DNA of 64,000 nucleotides from Candidatus Iainarchaeum sp. (GCA_028714235.1 JAQTMQ010000002.1:8154-72153), one strand, 5' to 3'. Positions 1,433-41,126 are shown, numbered from the stretch's first letter. A program made the numbers and translations. The notes: a model not told the origin generated them from the sequence alone.

Positions 1433-1681
1433 TCATCCCCCGAGGAGCGGGGCGAGGAACCACACCATCGCGACCAGGGTTGCGTGGATGGTCGCCATCG
1501 CGAGCGCGACGTAGCCGAGCTTCCTGTGGACGGAGAACGGAATCCACTGCTTGCGGAGCTTCAGGTTTGAGAACGCGATGAATACCTGCAGGAAGACGAG
1601 CGAGTAAATGATTATTCCGAGGTAAAGGACGAGCGGCTTGCCCAAGATCGTGACGTCGTAACCAATCGTCAGCCAAGACAT
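1433..1681 (-). CDS. small membrane protein (82 aa, two TM segments)
   Basis: The distal part of ORF 1433..1891, from ATG at 1681 (MSWLTIGYDVTILGKPLVLYLGIIIYSLVF...), is hydrophobic and protein-like. The upstream extension is R/P/G-rich junk. Confidence 0.4.
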   Translation of the reverse strand: MSWLTIGYDVTILGKPLVLYLGIIIYSLVFLQVFIAFSNLKLRKQWIPFSVHRKLGYVALAMATIHATLVAMVWFLAPLLGG

Positions 1682-2064
1682 TTTTTTCACTCCGCGCGGG
1701 GGAATCCGGAAGAACTTCAAACTGGAGGGGGCGGCCAGCCCCCTGCGGTTCGGATGGCAGGAGGCCCCGTCTCGAAGCGGCTCTTCCGGCGCGGTGTCCG
1801 GGCCTGTGCTCCACCCAGTATCCCCGGAGCATGGGGCGCCGTAGCTTAGGGTTGCTCCTTCCGGCCTGGCCCGATTCGTACGGCAGACCATCCCCGGGGG
1901 CTGGGCTTCTACGCTTCAGCCCGGTCCTGGAACCGGAAAAGCCGCGCCTCAACAGGGCGTTCGGTCCCGCCTGGAGGGGATTTGCGGCGACAGGGGACCC
2001 CTGGCCCCCCGACCTATCCTGCCGCAACAGGTTGCGAAGCCGCTGTTTAAAAACCGCCCGCCTT
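1682..2064. ncRNA. candidate structured non-coding RNA (SRP RNA or RNase P RNA are possibilities; unverified)
   Basis: A 380-nt gap between two minus-strand genes with no credible ORF. It is very GC-rich and has many nested inverted repeats. CUGUGCUCC (1804-1812) pairs with GGAGCAUGG (1826-1834), GGCGC (1788-1792) with GCGCC (1836-1840), GGGCU (1904-1908) with AGCCC (1918-1922), and CAGGGG with CCCCUG at 1991-2003. A GUCCGGGC motif lies at 1796-1803 and GCCCGG at 1919-1924. Confidence 0.25.
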
Positions 2065-5047: not shown

Positions 5048-5944
5048 GTGGTTTGGTTGGCTCGCGTTGTGGTTGCGGACGGCCTGGATGAAGGGGCCGT
5101 CGCGGAGTTGGGGAAGGCTTTCGGCCCGGTTTCGGTGAAGCCGGCCGACTTGGGCGCGGAGCTCGCCGACGCCGAAATACTGATAGTGCGAAGCAAGACG
5201 AGGGTCACCCCGGCGCTGCTCGCGCTCGCGCCCAAGCTGAAGGTCGTCGCGAGGGCCGGGGTCGGCCTCGACAACGTCGACGCGGACGCGTGCGCGGAAA
5301 GGGGCATCGCGGTCTTCAACACGCCGGACGCGAGCACGGTCGCGGTCGCGGAATTCGCGGTCGCCATGATTTTCTCGCTGCTCCGCCACCTGCCGCGCGC
5401 GGACGCGTGCATGAGGGCGTCCAGGTGGGAGAAGAGCGCGCTTGCCGGCCGCGAGCTTTCCGGGAAGACGGTCGGCATAATCGGCTTCGGGAGGATCGGG
5501 AGCTCGGTTGCGGACCGGCTTCGCCCGTTCGGCTGCAGGATACTCACGTTTTCGCTTGAATTCCTGAAGAACCCGGGGGACACGGAAGTGGTGCCGCTTG
5601 AGGAGCTGCTCGCGCGTTCGGACATAGTCACCCTCCACGTCCCGCTGACGCCGGAAACGAGGCACATGATGAACGCCGAAAGGATTGCGCTGATGAAGCC
5701 GGACGCCCTAATAGTGAACACGGCGCGCGGAGAGCTCGTTGACGAGGAGGCGCTTTACTGCGCGCTGAAGGCCGGAAAGCTGGGCGGCGCGGCGCTTGAC
5801 GTCTATCCCGTCGAGCCGTATTCCGGGAAGCTTTGCGGCCTCGAAAACGTGGTCCTCACGCCCCACATCGCGGGAAGCACCGCGGAGGGACAGGCGCGCA
5901 TAGGGCGGCAGCTCGTGGAAAAGCTGAAAGAAATTCGCTTGTGA
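5048..5944 (+). CDS. serA: D-3-phosphoglycerate dehydrogenase / D-2-hydroxyacid dehydrogenase
   Basis: It has the NAD-binding GxGxxG (GIIGFGRIGSSVA), the catalytic region (TLHVPLTPETRHMMNAE...NTARGELVDEEAL) and the HIAGST motif. Confidence 0.75.
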   Translation: MVWLARVVVADGLDEGAVAELGKAFGPVSVKPADLGAELADAEILIVRSKTRVTPALLALAPKLKVVARAGVGLDNVDADACAERGIAVFNTPDASTVAVAEFAVAMIFSLLRHLPRADACMRASRWEKSALAGRELSGKTVGIIGFGRIGSSVADRLRPFGCRILTFSLEFLKNPGDTEVVPLEELLARSDIVTLHVPLTPETRHMMNAERIALMKPDALIVNTARGELVDEEALYCALKAGKLGGAALDVYPVEPYSGKLCGLENVVLTPHIAGSTAEGQARIGRQLVEKLKEIRL

Positions 5945-5947
5945 ATC

Positions 5948-6391
5948 TCATCCTCGCCGCGTCCCGACCCGCCCGCAGCCGCGGAAGCCCTCCGAGAGCG
6001 CGCTTTTCGCTTCCGCGCCCGCCGCAGCCGCCCCGGCCGCAGGCGGCGCAACCGCCTCGCGCGCCGGCGCTGCGCGCGCAATCTCGTTTTTCCTGGCTTC
6101 CACGGCAATCGCGACTATCGCGGTGGCGCAGGGCGGGGCGCTCGAGGCCTCCCCCAGCTCCGCCGGCGTGGCGCCGAGCATCGCGAGCTTCTCCACCATC
6201 GCTTTCGCCTGCGGGTCAACGGACAGGCACCCGAGCCCGCATTCCCCGAACCTTTCGGCGAGGCCGTCGCAAAGCGCCCTGACCTCGGCCTCCCGCCTTA
6301 TGCCCGCGAGGCCGGCCCTAGCAAGCTCTGCCCGAGGCTCGGCGCGCCGCCCGAACCCCTTCCCGCTTTCGCCTGGAGAAACACAATCCAC
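5948..6391 (-). CDS. hypothetical protein
   Basis: 147-aa ORF filling the serA-serS gap, with a Cys-containing motif CDGLAERFGECGLGC. Composition is partly low-complexity. Confidence 0.3.
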   Translation of the reverse strand: MDCVSPGESGKGFGRRAEPRAELARAGLAGIRREAEVRALCDGLAERFGECGLGCLSVDPQAKAMVEKLAMLGATPAELGEASSAPPCATAIVAIAVEARKNEIARAAPAREAVAPPAAGAAAAGAEAKSALSEGFRGCGRVGTRRG

Positions 6392-6573
6392 CGAGATGCA
6401 CCCGCGCTGGAACGCCCGCTCCCGGTTTAATACGGTTGCCCGTAATTGTTATCGCGCCCGGAGCGCCCAAGGCGAATAAAATACCCGCGCCGCGGCGCGG
6501 GTGCGGATTCGGGCGGCATTTGCACAGGAGCGTTAAAAAATGCGCCTTGAGTAAGAGGTTGCGGTGCGGACTT

Positions 6574-7842
6574 ATGCTTGACATCCGAAGAATCAGGGAT
6601 AACCCGGACGAGCTGCGCGCGGCCCTGAAGAACAGGGGGCAGGACGCGGGCGCGGTCGAGGAAATCCTCAGGCTTGACGGGGAATGGCGGGAGCTGAAGG
6701 CGCTTGCGGACGGCCTGCGCGCCTCCAAGAACAAGGTTTCCCTCGAAATCAACGGGCTCAAGAAGGCGGGGAAGGGGATTGACGCGCAGGTCCACGAGTC
6801 GCACAGGATTAACGCGGAGCTCGCGGGCGTTGAGGGGAAGGCGGCTGAGATGGAGGGCAGGCTGGCCGCCATCATGCTCACCGTCCCCAACATCCCGCAC
6901 CCGAGCGTCGCGGTCGGGAAATGCGAGGACGACAACCCGGTGATTCGCTCGTCAGGAACCCCGCGGAAATTCGACTTCAAGCCGAAAGAGCATTGGGAGC
7001 TTGCCACGGAGCTGGACATAATGGATTTCGAGCGCGGGGCGAAGATTGCGGGCCACCGCTTCACCCTCCTGAAAGGCGACGGGGCGAAGCTTGAGCGCGC
7101 GGCCATAAACTTTTTCCTCGACGTGCACGAGAAGAACGGGTGGTTCGAGGTGTTCCCGCCCCTGCTCGTCAACGAGAAGACCGCGACCGGCACCGGAAAC
7201 CTGCCCAAGTTCGCCGACCAGCTTTACTACTGCGGCGAGGACAAGCTCTACCTGATTCCGACCGCGGAAGTCCCGGTTACGAACATCTACATGGACGAGA
7301 TAATCCCGAAGGAGGACCTCCCCATGCGCTTCTGCGCGTACACGCCCTGCTTCCGCAGGGAAGCCGGCGAATACGGGCGCGACATCAAGGGCTACCTGCG
7401 CCAGCACCAGTTCAACAAGGTGGAGCTCGTAACAATATGCGAGCCGGAGAAGTCTTACGAGGAGCACGAGCTGATGGCGAAGGAAGCCGAGCGCGTCCTG
7501 GAGCTGCTGGGCCTTCCTTACAACCGCATGCTGCTCTGCACGGGCGACATGGGCTTCGCGGCCGCAAAGACCTACGACCTGAACGTCTGGCTTCCCGGGC
7601 AGGGCAAATACCGCGAAATCTCATCCATCTCCAACTGCGAGGACTTCCAGGCGCGCAGGGGAAACACGCGCTACCGCGACGCGAAAAACAAGCCGAGGCT
7701 CGTGCACACGCTGAACGGCTCCGGGATAGCGGTGGGGCGCACCGTAATCGCAATCATGGAAAACTACCAGAACGCGGACGGCTCAATCACGGTTCCCGAG
7801 GCGCTGCGGCCGTACATGAAGGGAAAGGAAAAAATCGCGTGA
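6574..7842 (+). CDS. serS: seryl-tRNA synthetase
   Basis: It has the N-terminal coiled-coil (MLDIRRIRDNPDEL...) and class-II motifs (FRREAG, GSGIAVGRTVIAIMENYQ). ATG at 6574, with TTAAAAAA at 6533-6540 upstream. Confidence 0.9.
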   Translation: MLDIRRIRDNPDELRAALKNRGQDAGAVEEILRLDGEWRELKALADGLRASKNKVSLEINGLKKAGKGIDAQVHESHRINAELAGVEGKAAEMEGRLAAIMLTVPNIPHPSVAVGKCEDDNPVIRSSGTPRKFDFKPKEHWELATELDIMDFERGAKIAGHRFTLLKGDGAKLERAAINFFLDVHEKNGWFEVFPPLLVNEKTATGTGNLPKFADQLYYCGEDKLYLIPTAEVPVTNIYMDEIIPKEDLPMRFCAYTPCFRREAGEYGRDIKGYLRQHQFNKVELVTICEPEKSYEEHELMAKEAERVLELLGLPYNRMLLCTGDMGFAAAKTYDLNVWLPGQGKYREISSISNCEDFQARRGNTRYRDAKNKPRLVHTLNGSGIAVGRTVIAIMENYQNADGSITVPEALRPYMKGKEKIA

Positions 7843-12749: not shown

Positions 12750-12920
12750 TCAGCTCATAATTGGTTGGGCTGCTATTTAAATCTTTACGGATTGGTGCGG
12801 TTTACCATAGGTAAGCTTTCAACCTTGGGTTGCCGTCGAATACACGATCAGGAAGAAAGCACCAATAAACGAGGGGGGGGTGTAGCTCAAAAATTCGTTT
12901 CCACTAACTATCGTTTAAAG

Positions 12921-12970
12921 CAGAAAAAAAGAGAAAAATAAAATGGGGAGGGGGTTTTTGCAAACCCCCG
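12921..12970 (-). terminator. hairpin plus oligo-T terminator downstream of the S-layer-like gene
   Basis: Minus-strand GGGGGUUU-GCAA-AAACCCCC (GNRA loop) at 12950-12969. It is followed on the minus strand by UUUUAUUUUUCUCUUUUUUUCUGC. Confidence 0.55.
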
Positions 12971-12996
12971 GAGTCTTGGCTTCCCGGTCCGGGACC

Positions 12997-16044: not shown

Positions 16045-16403
16045 GATACCACCTCGGTATTCTGTGCCGTTTCTTTGTATGGGCGCCCGGCGAACTTCTC
16101 GCGTGAAGTGCCGGGTCGACAGATGCTCCCTGCCGACATAATACCAATATTAACAACGGCACACGTTTGCCCATACACAAACCCCACGTCATCCGACGGC
16201 GCACCCGGTAGGGCGCGCAGCCATCAATAGGGCTATTCCACAGGGTTTATTTTCTATGCCTTTTTAAATATTACTGAAACCTACTAACTCCAGTTAATAT
16301 TTGACAATCGGCGGAACGCCAATTGACGAACCTATTGTTCGTCTCGCCGCGGCACCCGGAGGTGCCGCTTTTGCCCGGCAAACCCTGCAGTAAGTGCTTT
16401 GCT

Positions 16404-24172: not shown

Positions 24173-24387
24173 CCCACCTACCTACAATTATTAAATTAAT
24201 TAGCACTAGCATTGCCGCAATAAGCATTGCGCCCAGCGCGCGTCCGCGCGCGGGGCAAGAAGCGCTATCATTAACATGCTTTTGCCTTGCGAGCGCTTTT
24301 AAAGCTTCCGTCGCCTTTTCACCGTGCGCGCACTCCCTCAATTAAGCTTTAATCTGGCCGCGGCCGAAACTCTTGCGAGTGGTCCAC

Positions 24388-25817: not shown

Positions 25818-25982
25818 GGTTTCACCCCCGCTTTAACAAGCGGGGTTTCGGAATAAAAAGCCATCTGCGCGGCGCGACCGCAAACGTTATTAACAATTCT
25901 TTCCCAACTCATTCCGCGCCTGAGATGTAGCGGCAACGCAACGCTTTTTTGCGCGTGCTGAATCGGCGCAGGTGAAGATTCG

Positions 25983-26555: not shown

Positions 26556-27089
26556 TTGCCATTCGCCGACCTCGACGTCCGCTTTCCGGTCAGGCAGGAG
26601 AGGATGCGCGAGCTCGGCTTCCAGAAGTTTTCCGTGCCCTTCGTCGCCGAGCTCGCGAAGCCCGGCGACGCGCGCAGGATTCCGCCCGATGCCGGGCTCG
26701 CGGTCGCCTGCTCGCCCGACGTGGAGCTTTTGCGCGAAGCCGCGAGGTCAAGCCGCGCGCGCCTCCTCTTCAGTCCCGCCTTCCAGCCCGACGTAGGCCT
26801 GATTCGCGAGGCAGCGGAAAAGGGCAAGGCGTTCGAGCTCCCGGTTTCCCCCCTCCTTCAAAGCGCCGGGATACAGCGCGCGATGCTCATGGGAAAAATG
26901 CGTTTCTTCGCCAGGCTGTGCCTGAAGCTTGGCGCGCCAATCGTCATGGTTTCCCAGGCGGGGGACGGCTTCGGGCTCAAGTCGCCGCGCGAAATGGTTG
27001 CCGTGGGCCAGTCGCTCGGCCTTTCTCGCGACCAGGCCGAGTGGTCCATGACCGAGGCGGCGGAGCTGGTGCTGGATGCCTCCCGTTAA
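26556..27089 (+). CDS. rnp3: RNase P protein subunit Rpp30 (Rnp3)-like
   Basis: It starts with TTG right after the eL15 stop. FADLDVRF resembles the Rpp30 start. The conserved rnp3-rnp2 pairing with Pop5 supports the call. Confidence 0.55.
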   Translation: MPFADLDVRFPVRQERMRELGFQKFSVPFVAELAKPGDARRIPPDAGLAVACSPDVELLREAARSSRARLLFSPAFQPDVGLIREAAEKGKAFELPVSPLLQSAGIQRAMLMGKMRFFARLCLKLGAPIVMVSQAGDGFGLKSPREMVAVGQSLGLSRDQAEWSMTEAAELVLDASR

Positions 27090-27399
27090 GCCCACGATGC
27101 GCAGCAAGCGCCGCTACGTGCTGTTCAGCGTGGAATGCGAGTCCCAGGCCGGCGAGCAGCAGGTGAAGCGCGCGGCCTACGACGCAATCCTCTCCTTCCT
27201 CGGCGAATACGGCTCGTCGCTCGCGGGCCCCAGGTTCATCGGCTTCGACCAGAAGCGCGGGCTCGCGGTGATGAGGTGCTCGCACTCGGAACTCGATAAA
27301 GTCGAGGCCGCGCTCGCCCTCCGCGCGGCGATTGGCGGGAAAAAGGCGGCCTTCCGCCTGAAAAAAGTGTCTGGAACGATTGCGGGACTGTCGCGATAG
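27076..27399 (+). CDS. rnp2: RNase P protein subunit Pop5 (Rnp2)
   Basis: KRRYVLFSVECE and the overall ~107-aa architecture match archaeal Pop5. It overlaps the rnp3 end by 14 nt. Confidence 0.7.
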   Translation: MPPVKPTMRSKRRYVLFSVECESQAGEQQVKRAAYDAILSFLGEYGSSLAGPRFIGFDQKRGLAVMRCSHSELDKVEAALALRAAIGGKKAAFRLKKVSGTIAGLSR

Positions 27400-40865: not shown

Positions 40866-41126
40866 TCCGCGCAGGACAGGTTATTAAAACTGACGACAGC
40901 CGCCGTCCAAACTGATTAGCCTTTTAAATCCTAACGCGCCTAATTACCGCGTTGTTGTTTGATTGGGGTCTTTTCGGGCGCTTCCGGCGGCAGGGCTTGC
41001 CCTGCCAGCAATGAAAAACCGGCGCGCCCAGGTTGGAGTTGTTTGAGCCGCCTGGCGCGAGCCGTGGCAGCTGACGAAAGGGCTTGCAATTAATTAGGTT
41101 TCGCAAGGCAAATGCTTGAGTGAGGT

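Follow-up and report, generated by a model that had tools for sequence, protein, structure and literature searches.

Genomic context of the non-coding gap

The locus described here is a gap of 383 nt, at positions 1682-2064 of the window (by which we mean the whole 64-kb stretch of DNA that was analysed), that is non-coding and strongly structured. Both flanking genes, one for a small membrane protein with its ATG at 1681 and one for a pilin-like protein (2065-2604), are on the minus strand. The gap is divided among 40 nt of promoter, an SRP (7S) RNA gene of 270 nt, and 73 nt of trailer and upstream region of the next gene. The features that surround the RNA are as follows; throughout, RNA position n corresponds to window coordinate 2025-n.

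1433..1681, minus strand: gene for a hydrophobic protein of 82 amino acids, the downstream neighbour, outside the RNA (ORF list and sequence)
1755..2024, minus strand: SRP (7S) RNA gene, 270 nt (Rfam RF01857, MFE fold and covariation with 65 homologues)
2046..2053, minus strand: putative TATA box TTTTTAAA, at -29..-22 relative to the RNA 5' end (sequence)
1710..1752, minus strand: 3' trailer, with a GC-rich hairpin followed by a U-rich stretch (sequence and fold)
1744-1738 / 1732-1726, minus strand: core of the trailer hairpin, with the loop UGGCC (fold)
1721-1710, minus strand: U-rich stretch UUUGAAGUUCUU (sequence)

The 82-residue protein has no Pfam match. The gene content of the window, which includes proteasome alpha, SBDS, Rrp4, Rrp41, Rrp42, L37ae, L15e, eRF1, an archaeal-type UMP kinase, Rpp30 and Pop5, is archaeal, and the named relatives of Rrp41 are almost all from Candidatus Micrarchaeota, Micrarchaeia or Anstonellaceae (62-69% identity, with the best matches of this protein reaching 84%). 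Judging from these sequences, the window belongs to a GC-rich Candidatus Micrarchaeota (DPANN) archaeon. Its closest SRP RNA among the matches listed in our survey (see below) is only about 73% identical, which argues for a distinct GC-rich lineage within this phylum.

The GC content of the gap is 67.1% and that of the RNA core 70.0%, compared to 63.1% for the whole window. The clear non-coding gaps elsewhere in the window (12750-12996, 16045-16322, 24173-24372, 25818-25982 and 40866-41126) are at 46-55%. These values agree with the original prediction, which had given about 68% GC for a non-coding gap; its further statement that the other intergenic regions are short and AT-richer is borne out only in part, since several other apparent gaps are GC-rich and probably contain genes overlooked by the crude gene finder used. 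One such apparent gap, at 5945-6570 (72% GC), lies upstream of the seryl-tRNA synthetase gene, the start of which (6436) was probably placed too early, with the Pfam domain beginning at residue 47; a minus-strand ORF of 147 amino acids (5948-6391) in the same gap appears protein-like, and a permissive Rfam scan of 5850-6650 returned noise only. Elsewhere, the segment 10611-16044 contains two very large minus-strand ORFs (712 and 1015 amino acids) with hydrophobic, signal-peptide-like N termini, which probably encode surface or S-layer-type proteins. Proteins of this type have been reported for other Micrarchaeota.

Three ORFs overlap the gap, two on the minus strand (206 and 152 amino acids) and one on the plus strand (285 amino acids), and all are rich in R, P and G, as had been noticed initially for both strands. 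Because the 206-residue (1407-2027, minus) and 285-residue (1831-2688, plus) ORFs span the gap, either could be regarded as a real gene, but we assign practically no probability to a protein-coding gap. At 63-70% GC, long spurious ORFs are expected on both strands, and the products here are of low complexity; the plus-strand ORF crosses the pilin-like gene, a real one, on the opposite strand; and across 66 homologous sequences the substitutions are compensatory base-pair changes rather than codon-like ones. Read as RNA, the minus strand at 1755-2024 has an MFE of -150.4 kcal/mol, lower than that of each of 200 dinucleotide-preserving shuffles (z = -3.85), so that the nested stems of the gap, which had marked it as a candidate structured RNA, exceed chance.

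Identification of the SRP RNA gene

SRP RNA is a housekeeping RNA that aids the delivery of membrane and secreted proteins. The sole Rfam 15 match in the whole window at gathering thresholds is to the Archaea_SRP family (RF01857), which aligns end to end (model positions 1-317) with 2024..1755 on the minus strand at 99.5 bits (E 2.5e-21). The margin over the gathering score of 96.5 is only 3 bits because of the deletion of helix 6 that is discussed below. When both strands of 1400-2400 were scanned permissively (relaxed filters, E<=10), Archaea_SRP was recovered at E 3.8e-23, and everything else was noise at 16-19 bits. The match puts the RNA on the minus strand, settling the strand in the way that had been anticipated. 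The original prediction had also pointed to RNase P RNA and intron-containing tRNA as families to look for. RNase P families had no match in 1400-2400 (E<=10, both strands) or in the whole window at the gathering score, and ARAGORN detected no tRNAs across the 64 kb, with intron-containing tRNAs likewise absent.

The resemblance to RNase P RNA deserves comment. The region is a GC-rich, structured, non-coding segment of a size similar to that of archaeal RNase P RNA, also a housekeeping RNA, and genes for two RNase P protein subunits are indeed present in the window, Rpp30/rnp3 at 26556-27089 and Pop5/rnp2 at 27076-27399. Furthermore, the elements GUCCGGGC and GCCCGG, previously likened to the strands of RNase P P4, do look P4-like by eye, which raised the prospect of an RNase P RNA that works with these proteins. 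Both elements exist, but they pair with each other, with covariation, as part of SRP helix 5 (1918-1924 with 1798-1804), and a P4 pseudoknot is lacking. The second element singled out on sequence grounds, GGAGCA, was correctly compared to SRP helix 8: it occupies RNA positions 167-172 (window 1858..1853), inside the CAGGCCGGAAGGAGCA core, and the helix-8 SRP54 motif together with an Alu domain is diagnostic of SRP RNA. The permissive Rfam scan refutes the identity as RNase P RNA, the probability of which we put at next to nothing, and the proximity of rnp2 and rnp3, 25 kb off, is coincidental to the SRP RNA locus.

We thus hold, with high confidence, that the gap contains a single-copy SRP RNA gene without helix 6, the product of which most likely functions in a two-component SRP (RNA and SRP54). 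It is essentially an ordinary housekeeping RNA, a member of the SRP RNA clan that lacks one defining archaeal feature, namely helix 6. Annotating the gap as an SRP RNA gene is routine and within reach of any Rfam-based pipeline; with it, the presence of a GC-rich gap without coding sequence is explained, and the RNase P hypothesis falls away.

The transcription signals are consistent with this identity. In nearly all of the 66 homologous loci, the GC-rich ones included, an A/T-rich, TATA-like box precedes the RNA by approximately 22-32 nt. In the window, the TTTTTAAA box is a predicted archaeal promoter, the position of which is as expected for an archaeal RNA gene that is transcribed on its own, and places the RNA 5' end close to 2024. 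At the other end, the hairpin and U-rich stretch are likely to represent a transcription stop or a processed trailer; this trailer is not conserved, the sequences downstream of the RNA being different in the relatives.

Secondary structure and covariation

We searched for relatives with the helix-8 core pattern AAYNNGGNCAGGCCGGAAGGAGCANCC in one genome per GTDB species and obtained at least 120 loci. About 100 of those listed are Micrarchaeota, among them Ca. Micrarchaeum sp. A_DKE, the genome of which is complete; the remaining listed matches come from bacteria and are 4.5S RNAs of Planctomycetota, Trueperaceae and Holophagales. The window RNA and 65 distinct homologues from Micrarchaeota that fall into its length class (mean identity 63%) were aligned with MAFFT, and a consensus structure was computed with RNAalifold. 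The fold of the window RNA comprises the following elements.

2017..2023, minus strand: helix 1, 5' strand GGCAGGA, paired with 1756-1762 (MFE fold)
1756..1762, minus strand: helix 1, 3' strand UCCUGCC (MFE fold and covariation)
1965..2014, minus strand: Alu (small) domain with helices 2, 3 and 4 (Rfam alignment and covariation)
2010-2004 / 1998-1992, minus strand: helix 3 (99.1% paired in the alignment)
1992..1988, minus strand: UGUNR motif of the Alu domain, here UGUCG
1987-1984 / 1970-1967, minus strand: helix 4 (97.3% paired in the alignment)
2001-1998 with 1979-1976, minus strand: Alu loop-loop tertiary pairs, G24-27 with C46-49 (Rfam alignment)
1888..1958, minus strand: helix 5, 5' strand, with the GCCCGG element (MFE fold and covariation)
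1764..1834, minus strand: helix 5, 3' strand, with GUCCGGGC as read on the plus strand (MFE fold and covariation)
1886..1887, minus strand: site of the would-be helix 6 branch, where a 2x2 internal loop joins helix 5 to helix 8
1837..1885, minus strand: helix 8, the predicted SRP54-binding hairpin (Rfam alignment and fold)
1885-1879 / 1843-1837, minus strand: basal stem of helix 8, followed by an asymmetric loop and the stem GGG/CCC
1868..1853, minus strand: helix 8 core CAGGCCGGAAGGAGCA (Rfam alignment, high posterior)
1862-1859, minus strand: GGAA tetraloop of helix 8 (Rfam alignment and fold)

In the consensus, the ends are joined in a terminal helix, the Alu domain has two hairpins, and a single long rod without branches leads up to helix 8. 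Compensatory changes on both sides are found in 56 of the 66 base pairs, and 91.6% of the cells of the alignment are paired, compared to 39-47% when the 3' partners are slid by one to three columns; shuffled alignments are paired at 74.0%, and none of 500 shuffles attains the observed value. The covariation score is 0.60, against 0.10-0.16 with slid partners. Hence the covariation for which the original prediction had suggested looking does support the pairing.

The individual elements behave in the same manner. Helix 1 is a terminal helix of 7 bp, all three consensus pairs of which show compensatory changes (93.9% of cells paired). In the Alu domain, one of the loop-loop pairs (columns 25-50) is GC in 39 sequences, AU in 27 and unpaired in none, and the other three are G-C or G-U in every one of the 66 sequences. 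The consensus helices at columns 72-148 show compensatory changes in almost all pairs, and the invariant GA of the helix 5 internal loop is found at RNA positions 116-117. Helix 8 has both the symmetric and the asymmetric loop typical of SRP54 sites, which are universal, and its GGAA tetraloop is GNRA-like. The core of helix 8 is invariant in all homologues by construction, given that the same pattern was used to retrieve them; the stems flanking it covary (for example, GC in 34 and AU in 28 sequences at column 164-187).

The distal stem of helix 8 has 2 bp (CC/GG), compared to three in the archaeal consensus, with single-position deletions flanking the tetraloop stem. The exact 16-nt core CAGGCCGGAAGGAGCA, with the distal stem one pair short, is also present in 14 further loci (L005, L007, L014, L017, L020, L040, L077, L078, L098, L099, L103, L105, L109 and L116), all of them 4.5S RNAs, from some Planctomycetota (Gemmatales), Trueperaceae and Holophagales; a short tetraloop stem is therefore not confined to Micrarchaeota.

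Absence of helix 6

Helix 6 is the SRP19-binding hairpin of SRP RNA, which clamps onto helix 8. The cmscan alignment of the window RNA skips 40 consensus positions against a single nucleotide; these positions form a complete stem-loop between the 5' strand of helix 5 and helix 8, which is helix 6 in the SRP nomenclature. At this site, the window RNA has only the 2x2 internal loop, formed by UC at 1887-1886 opposite CC at 1836-1835, and across the 66 aligned sequences a continuous covarying helix (columns 136-158/191-214) spans the position. The same 40-position skip is displayed in the alignments of two homologues, L009 and L042, and helix 6 is absent from the window RNA and from all of the approximately 100 Micrarchaeota SRP RNAs examined, a count that covers carriers of the surveyed helix-8 core and that Micrarchaeota with another core, possibly with helix 6, would escape. 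All but 3 of 99 sequences have 139-150 nt between their 5' end and the helix-8 core, and the exceptions have insertions elsewhere. Two long SRP RNAs, of 305-319 nt, likewise carry their insertions away from the helix 6 position: L015:5152-5470(-) has two additional hairpins in the 5' strand of helix 5, and L087:3971-4275(+) has an expanded Alu domain.

In most other respects, the window RNA resembles archaeal SRP RNA (RF01857), with which it shares helix 1, Alu helices 2-4, the UGUNR motif, the loop-loop pairs, the long helix 5, the CAGG...GGAA...AGCA core of helix 8, the archaeal context and the TATA promoter, the last being predicted. Unlike archaeal SRP RNA, it lacks helix 6 and, as a consequence, the three-way junction of helices 5, 6 and 8, the GNAR tetraloop and the helix 6-helix 8 adenosine clamp; it is also shorter (270 nt compared to about 300-320), and its helix 8 distal stem is shorter by 1 bp.

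Among the openly accessible papers that were searched, we found none describing helix 6 loss in any archaeon, and those on SRP19 or SRP RNA that involve Micrarchaeota, DPANN or Nanoarchaeum do not discuss loss of helix 6 or SRP19 in their main texts. The window RNA is thus a member of a known RNA family, reduced to a Bacillus-like layout for which we could not find an earlier description.

Comparison with bacterial SRP RNAs

The layout of the window RNA, with an Alu domain and an unbranched rod of helices 5 and 8, no helix 6 and a length of about 260-270 nt, is that of Bacteria_large_SRP (RF01854, the Bacillus subtilis scRNA type), which likewise has no helix 6 and no SRP19 partner. The 11 Micrarchaeota homologues that were compared to Rfam (257-272 nt) are split between the two families: the best model is Archaea_SRP for five of them and Bacteria_large_SRP for six, and these six exceed the RF01854 gathering score over the full model (61.6-96.9 bits). 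Given also the identical helix-8 core in some bacterial 4.5S RNAs, one might suspect that the contig is bacterial or chimeric, or that horizontal transfer from a Bacillus-like bacterium replaced the archaeal RNA.

We consider such a bacterial provenance very unlikely. The genes that flank the RNA and those at a distance in the window are unambiguously archaeal, and such gene content refutes the idea of a bacterial contig; the putative TATA promoter, at about -26, points in the same direction. With the clan filter, Rfam gives Archaea_SRP as the best model for the window RNA, which, like five of its homologues, scores best with this model despite the deletion penalty. The RNA is present across the whole archaeal phylum, and loss of a single hairpin is more economical than transfer. 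Finally, the bacterial RNAs that share the helix-8 core are of the short 4.5S type, with 97 model positions, rather than of the large type. Thus, descent by loss from an archaeal ancestor is most likely, as opposed to shared ancestry with the Bacillus RNA. The Alu-domain partner protein of Bacillus SRP RNA is HBsu; partners of this type are not implied for the window RNA.

With 4.5S RNA (RF00169, Bacteria_small_SRP), the window RNA shares the 16-nt core CAGGCCGGAAGGAGCA, identical in some bacteria, and probably the two-component composition of the particle (RNA and Ffh); 4.5S RNA is about 100 nt long and has no Alu domain, whereas the window RNA keeps a complete one.

Additional hairpins in the relatives

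Approximately 30 Micrarchaeota SRP RNAs, found with nhmmer, contain an extra hairpin of about 12-30 nt directly 3' of helix 8, that is, on the side opposite to that of canonical helix 6 (L004:566-856(-), L013:690-980(+), L064:1062-1354(+), L108:2708-2997(-), L070, L050, L024 and about 20 more), with short versions at L060:933-1209 and L063:2989-3265. The stem covaries (for example, CG in 20, UA in 3, GC in 2 and UG in 3 sequences at column 52-78), and the hairpin, which is followed by a conserved GUACAA, has a loop that in most cases is not GNAR. The window RNA has no such hairpin.

These hairpins, as well as the GC-rich trailer hairpin (1744-1726) just downstream of the window RNA, invite the question of whether helix 6 has been displaced or is supplied separately, with SRP19 still in use; permuted or rearranged SRP RNAs are on record for Thermoproteus (PMC4731332). 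We regard this as highly improbable. The UGGCC loop of the trailer hairpin is not GNAR, the hairpin lies outside terminal helix 1, and it is not conserved in the relatives; the loops of the extra hairpins mostly do not conform to GNAR either, and the window RNA is without one. The records for SRP19 itself, considered next, also speak against it.

SRP19 and the composition of the particle

According to Supplementary Data 4 of Golyshina et al. 2017, arCOG01217 (SEC65/SRP19) is present in none of 15 DPANN genomes, including that of the complete Micrarchaeota Mia14 (PMC5498576), a count to be read with the proviso that arCOG assignment can overlook very divergent proteins. The reconstructed probability of presence of this arCOG is 0.9997 in the last archaeal common ancestor and 0 in both the DPANN ancestor and the Micrarchaea ancestor, and Ffh and FtsY are each found in 13 of the 15 genomes; the absence of SRP19 is not taken up in the main text of that paper (PMC5498576). 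Likewise, a paper on nanohaloarchaeal genomes names Ffh, FtsY and SRP RNA only (PMC10266531).

A six-frame HMM and phmmer search for SRP19 in the window and 120 loci (920 kb, at 8 kb per locus and thus over a small part of each genome) yielded nothing below E = 0.3, and neither an SRP54 gene nor an SRP19 gene was found within the 64-kb window. A word-indexed protein search with M. jannaschii SRP19 gave 25 matches, its reach being limited to Methanococcales relatives. Like the 15 DPANN genomes above, the source genome probably lacks SRP19.

These observations differ from the picture drawn in a 2010 review, in which every archaeal subgroup has SRP19 genes, together with helix 6, and the helix 6-helix 8 adenosine clamp is considered probable for all archaeal SRP RNAs; the survey behind that review included no DPANN lineage (PMC2905702). 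The same review reports that archaeal SRP54 can bind SRP RNA without SRP19 and that SRP19 is dispensable in Haloferax volcanii (PMC2905702), which makes a particle of RNA and SRP54 plausible. Assembly that does without SRP19 is not universal in archaea, however: when SRP19 is missing, the SRP54 of Thermoproteus shows only weak binding to the S domain (PMC4731332).

The function of the RNA can be sketched from its homology to SRPs of known structure. Transcription of the minus strand from the TATA-box promoter would yield an RNA of approximately 270 nt that is predicted to fold into an Alu domain (helices 2-4, locked by the loop-loop G-C pairs), the long helix 5, the terminal helix 1 and the apical helix 8. 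SRP54/Ffh would bind the loops of helix 8, capture signal sequences on translating ribosomes and then dock at the membrane with FtsY. The GTPase cycle of SRP54 and FtsY would involve the GGAA tetraloop together with helix 5, and contact with the ribosome would be made by the Alu domain (PMC2905702). Without helix 6, canonical SRP19 binding would be impossible, which argues that the particle most likely consists of RNA and SRP54 only, in the bacterial style.

On balance, we lean, by a modest preference, toward the view that Micrarchaeota, and perhaps DPANN generally, have a two-component SRP, with helix 6 and SRP19 lost jointly in a convergence on the Bacillus type and with the 3' hairpin gained in one subclade. 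A whole archaeal phylum with a helix 6-free SRP RNA stands against the universal presence of SRP19 and helix 6 given in the review (PMC2905702); if true, it would be a phylum-wide exception to that rule and a natural test of what the two components are for. If confirmed, it would also provide a natural SRP19-free archaeal SRP for the study of SRP54 assembly without SRP19, and would help to date the loss within the genome reduction of DPANN.

Annotation and genomic neighbourhoods of the relatives

Micrarchaeota SRP RNAs that score at or below the Archaea_SRP threshold, or that Rfam labels as bacterial, may mislead annotation and contamination checks of DPANN MAGs. Several full-length SRP RNAs of the Micrarchaeota type (nhmmer, 110-210 bits) are located on contigs filed under other taxa, namely Methanothrix sp. 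(L119), Candidatus Acidoferrum sp. (L081), Candidatus Omnitrophota (L053) and Candidatus Marsarchaeota (L012, L039, L046 and L113). Mis-binning of these contigs or mislabelling of the MAGs is the probable cause; L119 is near-identical to the A_DKE-like loci L029 and L039.

There is no conserved synteny around the SRP RNA gene when the window is compared to other Micrarchaeota, and genomic context therefore offers no functional clue. In many Micrarchaeota, a tRNA gene lies about 50-700 nt from the SRP RNA gene (L013:1026-1110, L012:2585-2668, L046:4926-5011, L084:2546-2667 and others); the tRNA of L084, at 122 nt, presumably contains an intron.
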